Shown: positions 24,474-27,128 of the stretch, in pieces
How positions within the stretch are numbered: the first letter of the stretch is position 1
Layout of the letters: the number at the start of each line of letters is the position of its first letter
Origin: Escherichia coli
GTDB taxonomy: Bacteria; Pseudomonadota; Gammaproteobacteria; Enterobacterales; Enterobacteriaceae
Strand: one strand, 5' to 3'
DNA: 64,000 nucleotides
Assembly (NCBI RefSeq): GCF_011045215.1
Contig: NZ_CP049201.1
Made by a program: the position numbers and the translations under genes
The notes under the pieces: generated by a model
Seen by the model: the letters and a program-made list of their open reading frames with translations, nothing else
What the model was told of the DNA's origin: nothing
The model's database searches: none

Positions 24474-26447
24474 TTACCCCGGTATTTGTTGCGTTCCGGC
24501 GAGTTGTGCCAGTATGTCGGAACCCGGCGATTGTCGCACCTGAAGCTCAATTATTGCGCGGGCATTTTTGCCAGCACCCTGAAGGTTATCTCTGGCATTT
24601 CTTAGCTGATTCATAATACCAGGGTGTTGATCCAAAGCTCCCTGTATCTGAGGCAATAATTTAATTAAATATTTTACAGTCTCCATTCTCAAACTTAGAT
24701 TTCCATCTCTATCAATACGACCTCCGTTATATGCCGTAAGCATTTTTGCCACATCGCCTTTATAACGCCGGTTCAGATCATTTAAAAAGCGGCCAGCCGC
24801 AAGAGTGGATTTATTTGGGTCATAAACATCATCACCCACCAGACCATACTGTTTTGCGGTGCTATCCCAGAATTGCCACAACCCCTTAGCGAATCTACCT
24901 TTTTCATCTGGAGTTCCTCTTGCCAGAGGATTCCACGAAGATTCAACCTCCGCGATAGCTGACATCATATTTTTAGGAAGTCGATAAGTATTATTGGCTT
25001 GCTCTACAAAGTTCTGAATATTTCTCTTTAAATCATTAGGCATACGGTAATTTTTATATACATCATCCTGTTTATAAAACTCACCCGTATACTGATTTGT
25101 CATCGGGTTTGCTCCCGGCAACGCACCACCGAGATATTTATTCCCAAATGCCGCAAGAACTGGATCTGCCTGTTCAGCACCAACTCCGGTTCCGGGGAGA
25201 TATTTATCTTCCCCACCGATCCATTTGATAGCTGACCATATTGCTTTTGCAATCCGGCTCACCGCCAGAGAAAAATCGTCAAGATCATTTTTAAATTGTT
25301 CGCTATTCAGCCACTTACCAAGTTTCTCCAGCCCTTCGCCAGCCTCAGTGAGAATTTTCTGAAAATTTCCACCATTCAGAAAACCTTCAATATTGGATGT
25401 CAGCCCATCAGATGCACCTGTGATTAGTGGGTTATATCTGGCGAGAGCTGCATACCAGGAATTTGATATTCTGTTTCCATTTACCATCAGGTTACTCACC
25501 GTATCCTGATAACCTGACTGCATAGCTGGCGTGAGGTAAGCACCGAGCAACCTGGTATTTGATGCAAATTTCTCGTTCAGTTGGGGGATCTTGTCCAGAT
25601 TCGCTTCCACCTGGTTAGTTGTCGCGACATCAACAAATCCAAGCCCTTGTCCGTTGAGAATCCCCTGAGTAAGTCCTGAACCTTTATATTGCTTAACGAG
25701 AGATGCAAGCGCGCTCATAAGTTTGGGCAGATTCTTTGCTGCACCATCTCGAGGATCAATTCCAAGACTGACCAGACCAGCATAGTTTGGATCATTCGGA
25801 TTTTTCTGTGCGTTCGCCAGATGCTGAACCAGTTCTTCTGTGCCAGAAAAATATGGCGAATAGGTGGCACGTGCGGCCTGCATCTGTGCGGTTTCCATAC
25901 CCAGCCCCTGAGCCACGCTGTATTGCGCTGCAACCTTGCTCGCCATATATCCGTACCCGAAAGCACCGACCGAACCAAGCGCCGCAATTTTGCTCCCCCA
26001 GGATACAGTCGTTTTAAACAGCGTTTTCAGTCGTGAATTGGTCGTTTTAAGCGTTGAATTGATCTGCTTGTAAGTTTTCAGCGTCCCCTGAGCGTTTTTA
26101 CCCAGACTACTGAGATACTTATCAAACATCGTTTCGCCGCGACCTTTATAGTTGCTCACCAGCGAATCAGGTGTTTTTCCGCTACCGACAAAGCTCCCTT
26201 TTTCATCCCTTAAACGTCCATCGGTGGGCGCAGGTGAAGATGGTTTCCTGGGAGCCTGATTGGCTTCTCCGCCCGAGGTTGCCTGCTGCGTGCCACCTCC
26301 TAGACCTGTATTTGAAGGTATTTTAAGCGGCGTCCCCGCAGGGCCAATCATCAGCCCATTGCGATACTTTTCAAATATCGCCTCAAGTCGCTTAAGGTGT
26401 TCTTCATTAACGTCCAGTGTCAGAACTGGCATCTGATTACCTGACAT
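24474..26447 (-). CDS. Tail tape measure protein with lytic transglycosylase (SLT) domain
   Basis: 657 aa; SLT-like motif ...SAIAEVESSWNPLARG...GLWQF; follows the frameshifted chaperone pair. Confidence 0.7.
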   Translation of the reverse strand: MSGNQMPVLTLDVNEEHLKRLEAIFEKYRNGLMIGPAGTPLKIPSNTGLGGGTQQATSGGEANQAPRKPSSPAPTDGRLRDEKGSFVGSGKTPDSLVSNYKGRGETMFDKYLSSLGKNAQGTLKTYKQINSTLKTTNSRLKTLFKTTVSWGSKIAALGSVGAFGYGYMASKVAAQYSVAQGLGMETAQMQAARATYSPYFSGTEELVQHLANAQKNPNDPNYAGLVSLGIDPRDGAAKNLPKLMSALASLVKQYKGSGLTQGILNGQGLGFVDVATTNQVEANLDKIPQLNEKFASNTRLLGAYLTPAMQSGYQDTVSNLMVNGNRISNSWYAALARYNPLITGASDGLTSNIEGFLNGGNFQKILTEAGEGLEKLGKWLNSEQFKNDLDDFSLAVSRIAKAIWSAIKWIGGEDKYLPGTGVGAEQADPVLAAFGNKYLGGALPGANPMTNQYTGEFYKQDDVYKNYRMPNDLKRNIQNFVEQANNTYRLPKNMMSAIAEVESSWNPLARGTPDEKGRFAKGLWQFWDSTAKQYGLVGDDVYDPNKSTLAAGRFLNDLNRRYKGDVAKMLTAYNGGRIDRDGNLSLRMETVKYLIKLLPQIQGALDQHPGIMNQLRNARDNLQGAGKNARAIIELQVRQSPGSDILAQLAGTQQIPG

Positions 26448-26739
26448 TCAATACCCCTCCCGGCGTCGTGCATTTACGCAGCTCACGAAACTGAGCTGCT
26501 GTTTTTACATTCAGACCGGAATTTGCCCAGATGTCGCTGAATCCGTCTCCGGCTGAGTAGTCGAGGATGTCGCTGATAACGTGCTCGCCGTCGCGCCAGA
26601 ACTGGCGACAGGCTTCAATGTCGGCAATGAAGCAATCCATTCCGTAAGACTCAAGGATGAAGTGCGACTGTTCCACATTCCACTGACTACCAGCATCATC
26701 TGTTCCGTCTGCTCCGGTGTGTTTATCGACGAGACGCAT
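26437..26739 (-). CDS. -1 frame C-terminal extension of the tail assembly chaperone (GT-like fusion segment)
   Basis: ORF in -1 frame relative to 26511..27128; -1 frame is closed by a stop just upstream of the U8 run (plus 26742-26749); ends 10 nt before the tape measure start. Confidence 0.55.
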   Translation of the reverse strand: MRLVDKHTGADGTDDAGSQWNVEQSHFILESYGMDCFIADIEACRQFWRDGEHVISDILDYSAGDGFSDIWANSGLNVKTAAQFRELRKCTTPGGVLNVR

Positions 26740-27128
26740 GTAAAAAAAACGAGTTCACCTGCCACATCATCAAATTCAACGATGCCGCGCTCTAGCGCCA
26801 TATCAAGCGGGATCGTGTCGTAGCCTTTCCCTTCGACTGGGTAAACCAGATTCGCAAGACGAATGATTTCATTCACGAGCGTATTGCGAACGCCCTTTTC
26901 GCCATCCCAGATATTCATATCTGAGGAGATCCGTTCCAGCATAAGGCAGGCGATACGCGGCCCCGAAACGACGCCAAGACCTTCTGAAAAAATGGCAGAA
27001 AAGGTTTTACTCAGAATAAAGAAATGCTCTTTAAACACCTCTTTGCTGATCGGCGTGGCATGGATCCAGCCGTTCCCCTTTTCTGTCCGGACAGGAATAA
27101 TCAGATTCAAATTTCGCGCGATTTTCAT
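26511..27128 (-). CDS. Tail assembly chaperone (G-like, zero-frame product)
   Basis: Track ORF 26511..27140 (GTG); ATG at 27128 overlaps tube stop (ATGA); contains the slippery run. Confidence 0.6.
   Translation of the reverse strand: MKIARNLNLIIPVRTEKGNGWIHATPISKEVFKEHFFILSKTFSAIFSEGLGVVSGPRIACLMLERISSDMNIWDGEKGVRNTLVNEIIRLANLVYPVEGKGYDTIPLDMALERGIVEFDDVAGELVFFTCVSSINTPEQTEQMMLVVSGMWNSRTSSLSLTEWIASLPTLKPVASSGATASTLSATSSTTQPETDSATSGQIPV

Follow-up and report, generated by a model that had tools for sequence, protein, structure and literature searches.

How a reading frame that has no conserved start codon of its own comes to be translated is the question raised by a short segment of prophage DNA in Escherichia coli (assembly GCF_011045215.1, contig NZ_CP049201.1), examined here as part of a 64,000-nt stretch that is referred to throughout as the window. 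The segment, in which the genes lie on the minus strand, holds two overlapping open reading frames (ORFs) in the position expected for a tail assembly chaperone, and an earlier note, made from the letters of the DNA alone, had proposed that the two are joined by a programmed −1 ribosomal frameshift on a run of U residues. The comparative analysis described below, which covers about 150 related loci in all with identities reaching down to ~30%, lends strong support to the frameshift interpretation, and a ribosomal −1 shift is probably the main route by which the domain encoded in the −1 frame is produced.

Anatomy of the slippery run

The zero-frame ORF of the candidate chaperone begins at an ATG (27128–27126) that shares the tetranucleotide ATGA with the TGA stop of the preceding 147-aa gene, and it ends at a TGA at 26513–26511. 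Within it the mRNA carries eight consecutive U residues (26749–26742), which are read in the zero frame as GUU (26750–48), UUU (26747–45) and UUU (26744–42), these being codons 127–129, followed by ACA. The last seven of the U residues (26748–26742) form the heptamer U_UUU_UUU in the X_XXY_YYZ register of the zero frame. The −1 frame is closed by a TGA (26757–26755), the position of which varies among relatives and which is not a conserved element, and then reads ACU CGU UUU UUU UAC AUG and onwards, with 101 codons from the UAC to a TAA at 26439–26437 that is situated 8 nt inside the 657-aa gene downstream (ATG at 26447). The anatomy is in these respects as the earlier note had described it: the coordinates and frames given for the two overlapping ORFs just upstream of the tape-measure gene are all correct, the A8 tract on the plus strand (26742–26749) does place the heptamer in frame, with the phase GUU_UUU_UUU, and the −1 frame is indeed closed just 5′ of the site and open for some 100 codons beyond it.

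A shift at the heptamer would join 129 zero-frame residues to 101 residues from the −1 frame, giving a predicted fusion of 230 aa with the junction GELVFF-YMRLVDK and, upon tryptic digestion, the predicted junction peptide GIVEFDDVAGELVFFYMR. Residues 1–129 are common to the zero-frame product and the fusion, while residues 130–205 constitute a C-terminus that is specific to the zero frame, since that frame runs on for 76 codons past the site, a feature absent from the earlier note, resulting in a 228-nt overlap of the two frames (26741–26514). U_UUU_UUU is the only canonical heptamer between the opening of the −1 frame (26754) and the zero-frame stop. A −2/+1 shift of the type associated with phage Mu was also considered and ruled out, the +1 frame meeting a stop five codons past the run.

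Conservation of the run and of both downstream frames

Two sets of homologous loci were compared. The close set comprises 71 loci from IMG/VR with 67–100% protein identity (50 unique sequences), and the distant set comprises 80 loci (64 unique sequences) retrieved by a search with a seven-sequence alignment, with 33–56% identity to the query P0129, which is itself 42% identical to the window protein. In the close set the run is T8 at 68 of the 71 loci, T7C at one, where the mRNA still offers U_UUU_UUC, and T9 at two. Of the unique close sequences, 50/50 have TTT at one of the two Phe codons of the run and 49/50 at the other, while at each of the four other Phe codons conserved in the gene both TTT and TTC occur, and an invariant third base is found in only 3 of the 83 codons for conserved residues. 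T7 or T8 runs ending at the same codon boundary are present in 57 of the 64 unique distant sequences, in which the residue that precedes the Phe pair varies (V, I, C, A or T) and its wobble base is T. The other seven distant sequences have C/A_UUU_UUU (two sequences) or UAU_UUU or UCU_UUU (five sequences), with the U_UUU tetramer kept. Among cultured phages, Chronis has T8 and PdC23 has T7 in the same layout. E. coli genes contain far fewer in-phase UUUUUUU runs than expected (z = −15.6; PMC4066793 Table S3). Judged from these alignments, the run is kept through selection at synonymous sites, and to a greater extent than chance would provide.

A small number of records carry T9 (loci L032, L073 and L076; proteins P0001–P0004, P0124, P0126, P0130 and P0131) and appear as single ORFs of 226–233 aa. 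Whether they are taken as sequencing errors or as real slippage mutants, both of which would fit, a number of them (L076, L032, P0001–P0004 and P0124) encode the predicted fusion with its FFY junction while leaving the other frame intact, which indicates that the fused polypeptide is viable and that T8 is the norm. The long forms associated with T9 also tend to become cluster representatives in databases, which could mislead annotation.

Both frames downstream of the run are conserved at the protein level. Site diversity at codon positions 1, 2 and 3 is 0.116, 0.084 and 0.425 in the N-terminal part of the gene, and 0.120, 0.203 and 0.196 in the overlap, where variation at zero-frame synonymous sites is suppressed and where, toward the 3′ half, the periodicity is that of the −1 frame. 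The domain encoded in the −1 frame, of ~100 aa, is homologous across the family, extends beyond the zero-frame stop to the start of the tape-measure gene, and retains the motif YG.D.F.AD[IV][ED]..R.[FY]WRDG...LD[YW]...GF...[EQ][FY]R down to ~30% identity. The zero-frame tail is likewise conserved over 46 representatives (mean identity 35%), with the pattern VFF[TI].. S.M...LW...SL..TE...SL.TS and with W152, S167 and L168 nearly invariant, and the zero frame continues for 53–76 codons past the site family-wide (53–68 in distant relatives). When codons were shuffled synonymously the other frame stayed open with a geometric-mean probability of 0.11 (zero frame) or 0.04 (−1 frame); despite these low odds, both frames are open in 26/26 of the diverse lineages tested. 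A second shift site downstream of the run was sought because the codon-position pattern turns from zero-frame-like to −1-like near nt 510 of the gene, and was rejected, there being no other heptamer before the zero-frame stop. The switch in pattern appears better explained by dual coding, with constraint moving between the frames.

Structural modelling of the two products is in keeping with this picture. AlphaFold2 returned one confident fold for the 230-aa fusion (predicted local distance difference test, pLDDT, 90.4; predicted template-modelling score, pTM, 0.86), in which a helix formed by residues 119–134 crosses the junction and is followed by a helical domain. The 205-aa zero-frame product was modelled with a mean pLDDT of 89.1 and a pTM of 0.79, and is predicted to be ordered to around residue 170, after which comes a disordered, Ser/Thr-rich tail. 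The conservation of both frames and the confident models together indicate that the gene would encode two isoforms, with a shared N-terminal domain and alternative C-termini.

Stimulators and the route to the −1 domain

Elements of the kind that stimulate ribosomal slippage were found in relatives of the window gene. A (G)GAGGU sequence resembling a Shine–Dalgarno (SD) element lies 15–16 nt upstream of the heptamer in ~80% of the distant relatives (L078–L157, L074 and L077). The Glu codon of this element is GAG in 45 of 46 cases, compared with 51% GAG elsewhere in the same genes, and the mean energy of its duplex with the anti-SD sequence is −8.3 versus a background of −0.56 kcal/mol. Additionally, all seven of the relatives with a weakened heptamer (L108, L118, L130, L133, L143, L083 and L114) have a strong hairpin 0–8 nt downstream, ~385–460 nt into the gene, with stems of 10–14 base pairs and energies of −12 to −23 kcal/mol. 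The mean local z score of these seven is −2.07 versus ~−0.55 in members with T7 or T8, z being the best of nine offsets and hence slightly favourable. It looks, from the sequences, as though the strength of the slip site and the strength of the stimulator compensate each other. The tetramer U_UUY is the second-best in E. coli, in which tetramers need strong stimulators (PMC4066793), and the U_UUU-tetramer relatives with their hairpins fit that rule. Since the GAGGU element is under synonymous selection and the hairpins accompany weakened heptamers, slippage by the ribosome is favoured; a run of U4 cannot support slippage by polymerase. A further candidate, AGGUGA 5 nt upstream of the site in the window (26759–26754), was rejected as an SD element because the wobble bases of the Gly-Glu codons that make it up vary (GGT/GGC/GGG/GGA/AGC) and so are not selected.

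In the mechanism envisaged, most ribosomes would stay in the zero frame and complete the 205-aa protein. At GUU_UUU_UUU the two tRNA-Phe molecules in the P and A sites would occasionally re-pair one base back, on U_UUU_UUU, after which the −1 frame would be read for 101 codons to give the 230-aa fusion (...ELVFF-YMRLVDK...). The products would have residues 1–129 in common and then diverge into different folded C-terminal modules, for which a single 228-nt segment is read in two frames. On the model of lambda G/GT, the tape-measure protein would be coated by the short form, as the abundant product, and the tube protein would be recruited through the extra domain of the rare fusion. That slippage takes place at the run, that it is ribosomal and that the products serve tail assembly is what we infer from the comparative pattern and this analogy.

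A number of observations weigh against a ribosomal shift at this particular locus. The upstream SD-like element is absent from the window and from its enterobacterial subfamily, and the equivalent position (~26769–26764 in the window) reads GAUGUG, with a duplex energy of −3.5 kcal/mol. A downstream stimulatory structure, for which the earlier note had suggested a search, was not detected in the window, where the minimum free energy fold of 121 nt is less stable than that of shuffled sequences (z = +2.09; local z 0.03); the consensus fold of 17 relatives (alifold) amounts to −1.24 kcal/mol with almost no covariation, and a comparison of 54 diverse relatives showed no position past the site at which stability is enriched. 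U_UUU_UUU in an E. coli reporter gave 0.33% frameshifting when bare and 10.2% with the IS3 pseudoknot (PMC4066793 Table S3), so that a shift on the bare, unstimulated heptamer of the window would be expected to be rare, in the order of a few per thousand, which compares with a G:GT ratio of 30:1 in lambda (PMC5009743). The AUG that follows the run is invariant within the enterobacterial subfamily. Lastly, sequences in which the SD-like element is weak or absent are T8 in 17/17 cases and never T7, while those that possess it are divided between T8 (24) and T7 (24); since 13 of the 17 come from one clade, this association is weakly replicated and suggestive at most. The additional T of the T8 run may make up for the lack of an SD element.

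The same 230-aa fusion could be made mainly by transcriptional slippage, with RNA polymerase adding a U on the T8/A8 tract, in that a U9 messenger would read GUU UUU UUU UAC AUG and specify an identical protein. Such a route is in keeping with the run being a homopolymer of eight, with the lack of a ribosomal stimulator in the window, with the restriction of SD-less sequences to T8 and with the T9 DNA variants, which mark the tract as slippage-prone for polymerases; E. coli genes, moreover, show avoidance of UUUUUUU in each of the three phases, which the authors who reported it linked to slippage and indels (PMC4066793). However, the documented cases of efficient slippage by bacterial RNA polymerase involve nine A or T residues, a length that a run of eight falls below (PMC5009743), and the −1 domain is retained by the many relatives with T7, the close one with T7C and the five that have U4 only. 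Moreover, the SD-like element and the compensating hairpins make sense only with a ribosomal event, and the T8 association is drawn largely from a single subfamily. Slippage by polymerase is considered unlikely to be the principal source of the fusion. An extended form of the frameshift interpretation would accommodate both processes: the family would be a variant architecture in which a switch in mid-helix selects between two C-terminal modules, with 53–76 codons of dual coding, in which lineages exchange SD element, hairpin and run length for one another, and in which the eighth T adds slippage by RNA polymerase in the SD-less enterobacterial branch, to which the window belongs, with the ratio of short to long form set partly or mainly at transcription. 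If true, one lineage would have switched its mechanism of recoding at a site homologous to that of the others, although it too is rated as an unlikely account of the locus as a whole.

No recoding would be needed at all if the −1 ORF were a separate gene of 100 aa that is translated from the AUG at 26739, with the U-tract substituting for an SD element as an A/U-rich enhancer of translation. That AUG adjoins the run and is invariant in the 50 unique sequences of the subfamily despite occupying a four-fold degenerate position of the zero frame, and gene callers annotate the −1 ORF separately, often enough for phrog_14324 (97 aa) to have been formed. Against this, the AUG is without an SD element, and in distant relatives its place is taken by codons for Leu, Cys, Gly, Val, Ser or Ala, with no other start before the conserved domain. 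The −1 frame explains the invariance of its A, since changes at that base are non-synonymous there; neither the T at three consecutive wobble positions nor the SD-like element at 15–16 nt is accounted for by an independent start, and in the AlphaFold2 model the −1 domain packs on the N-terminal domain via a continuous helix. Independent initiation is on these grounds very improbable. Finally, homopolymers are error-prone, and the rare T9 records (L032, L073, L076) and a few single-ORF homologues of 226–233 aa in databases might be taken to mean that the run length in the window was misread in sequencing, or that a frameshift mutation recently split or fused a single ORF, with one downstream frame functional. 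The earlier note had itself named an error that masks a single ORF as an outcome that would undo its proposal. The comparison speaks against that outcome: T8 is present in 68/71 viral loci and in both of the annotated relatives that were read (E. coli C5 and Rac-SA53), both downstream frames are open and conserved as protein across lineages at 30–40% identity, each of the two alternative C-termini is modelled with high confidence, and the fused proteins are singletons while the 205-aa clusters occur on hundreds of contigs. The comparative data effectively refute this reading, to which next to no probability is attached, and a ribosomal −1 frameshift at the U-run is retained as the likely main route to the −1 domain.

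Genomic setting and relation to known systems

The stretch of the window concerned is 98.7% identical to phage Rac-SA53, and 92 of the 5,426 complete E. coli genomes searched, E. coli W among them, contain homologous DNA, the run itself not being counted in that survey. Public annotation of the locus is confined to the 618-nt zero-frame coding sequence, labelled 'hypothetical protein' (E. coli C5, phage Rac-SA53), and a frameshift join is found in none of the annotated records examined, all of which say 'hypothetical'. Two assemblies labelled 'E. coli DH5alpha' (NZ_CP026085.1 and NZ_CM135829.1) carry the prophage segment, with match statistics (97.9% identity, 2422 bits) equal to those of E. 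coli W and its derivatives. A K-12 strain would not be expected to carry it, and the strains may be mislabelled. Similarly, the record PP818812.1, 'Actinobacillus phage vB_Apl-pPE4', has 92% nucleotide identity to the E. coli prophage over 1.4 kb. So close a match is not what a Pasteurellaceae host would lead one to expect, and the host may have been mislabelled or be a contaminant.

The features of the locus are collected in Table 1. The order of sheath, tube-position, candidate chaperone and tape-measure-position genes is kept in the cultured phages Chronis and PdC23. A tube role for the 147-aa gene, for which a Pfam search gave no match, is suggested by its position, and a tape-measure role for the 657-aa gene by its position and size. 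The 657-aa protein matches phrog_7694 and, more weakly, the 'lytic tail protein' phrog_2013, and is named only 'lytic transglycosylase' in public records because of its SLT lytic transglycosylase domain; a homologue of the baseplate hub (phrog_196) is encoded further downstream. The last 11 nt of the −1 ORF lie within the 657-aa gene, from its ATG onwards, and the zero-frame stop is 63 nt upstream of that ATG, so that the downstream gene is physically coupled to the −1 frame and not to the zero frame. This ATG (26447) is also equipped with a strong SD element (GGGAGGGG; window positions 26437–26470).

Table 1. Coordinates of the candidate chaperone gene, its recoding elements and the adjacent tail genes (window positions)
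Feature	Position	Strand	Remarks
Tail sheath gene, 445 aa	27580..28917	−	phrog_205 'tail sheath', E 2e-53; weak Pfam DUF3383, 1e-4
Tail-tube-position gene, 143–147 aa	27125..27568	−	phrog_6566 (function unknown)
Zero-frame candidate chaperone ORF (G-like product)	26511..27128	−	205 aa, 618 nt
TGA closing the −1 frame	26755..26757	−	two codons 5′ of heptamer
Slippery heptamer U_UUU_UUU	26742..26748	−	with 26749, forms the U8 run
−1-frame extension (T-like domain)	26437..26742	−	101 codons from UAC, and TAA stop
AUG in −1 frame directly 3′ of run	26737..26739	−	without SD; possible but unlikely independent start
Dual-coding overlap	26514..26741	−	76 zero-frame codons and first part of −1 domain, same 228 nt
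Tape-measure-position gene, 657 aa	24474..26447	−	Pfam SLT domain at residues 481–578, E 4e-20

The zero-frame protein matches phrog_11810 (E 5.8e-84) and the −1 domain phrog_14324 (E 4.4e-61), both of which are entered in PHROGs with function unknown. Searches with the candidate chaperone returned no match in Pfam, even at E 10, none in NCBIfam, and nothing relevant in a profile search of the PDB; the best hit in a fold search of BFVD was a 'Tail assembly chaperone protein [Myoviridae sp.]' with E 0.05 and template-modelling (TM) scores of 0.31/0.43, a hint only, and the members of the family in AFDB50 are all listed as 'Uncharacterized protein'. Significant likeness in sequence or fold to a characterised chaperone was therefore found in none of Pfam, PHROGs, NCBIfam, PDB, BFVD and AFDB50, and the chaperone assignment rests on synteny. 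The family is nevertheless large, with 636 cluster representatives at 50% identity in a sensitive search of 1.84 billion representatives, and it occurs also in cultured phages of Klebsiella, Pantoea and Shewanella. No description of the gene was found in the literature on Rac-SA53, Chronis, PdC23 and T-run chaperone frameshifts, and the five prophage clusters listed in PMC4066793 Table S4 (Sharma et al.) do not include it.

Recognition of the frameshift would permit two genes to be named in each tail module of this type, and would mend the split calls that are represented by phrog_11810 and phrog_14324. The family furnishes a natural series in which heptamer strength, upstream SD element and downstream hairpin are apparently traded at one homologous site, and a clear example of an extended dual-coding overlap whose two products, according to the models, both appear to fold, making it useful for studies of recoding and of overlapping genes. 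The general picture of tail assembly is unchanged.

Comparison with known systems places the locus nearest to the G/GT type of tailed phages (Xu, Hendrix & Duda 2004), as the earlier note had concluded, with one substantial departure. Four of the five testable features that define the type were found, namely the position, an overlapping −1 ORF without a start, a heptamer in register and a conserved architecture; the zero frame, however, goes 76 codons past the site, in an extension that shows conservation and for which order is predicted up to about residue 170. As with lambda gpG/gpGT, the gene is directly upstream of the tape-measure gene and has an in-phase heptamer, the −1 ORF, lacking a conserved start, adds a domain to a shared N-terminal part, and the architecture persists among relatives whether or not their sequences are alike. 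The lambda heptamer, G_GGA_AAG, is situated close to the 3′ end of G, so that GT consists of G plus T (Levin, Hendrix & Casjens 1993; Xu, Hendrix & Duda 2004, 2013, 2014, as summarised in PMC5009743). Here, in contrast, the site is at codon 129 of 205 and the short form has a conserved C-terminal part of its own, with ~40 folded residues and a disordered tail, that overlaps the coding sequence of the −1 domain; the heptamer is U_UUU_UUU, the tail is contractile, and homology to the lambda proteins is not detectable.

The E/E+E′ pair of phage P2, associated with the work of Christie et al. in 2002, is reportedly a tail chaperone frameshift of a myovirus on a T-rich heptamer. It is said to resemble the present locus in belonging to a contractile tail, in the placement of the gene between the tube and tape-measure genes, and in having a U-rich site decoded by tRNA-Phe. 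It reportedly differs in that the zero frame ends a few codons past the site, and its proteins are said to be much smaller and unrelated in sequence. Frameshifting of the P2 type is 2–3 times as efficient as that of lambda (PMC5009743).

The distant relatives of the window gene, with an SD-like element, a heptamer and in some cases a hairpin, resemble E. coli dnaX (tau/gamma) and the OrfAB systems of IS911 and IS3. The stimulator of the dnaX/IS911 type, an SD element and/or a structure 5–9 nt downstream, is present in those relatives and absent from the window, which has the heptamer only, and the tRNA concerned is tRNA-Phe as opposed to the very shifty tRNA-Lys. The spacing of the SD-like element in dnaX is reportedly ~10 nt, versus the 15–16 nt of the distant relatives. 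Known sites of transcriptional slippage (Thermus dnaX with T9, Shigella mxiE/spa, IS elements; PMC5009743) have in common with the locus an A/T homopolymer at the join of two frames that leads to the same protein; the documented efficient cases, however, involve at least nine A or T (PMC5009743), as opposed to eight here and seven, six or four in relatives. The locus is best described as an unannotated case of a well-known type of phage recoding, set apart by a switch in the middle of the gene and by a long dual-coding overlap.

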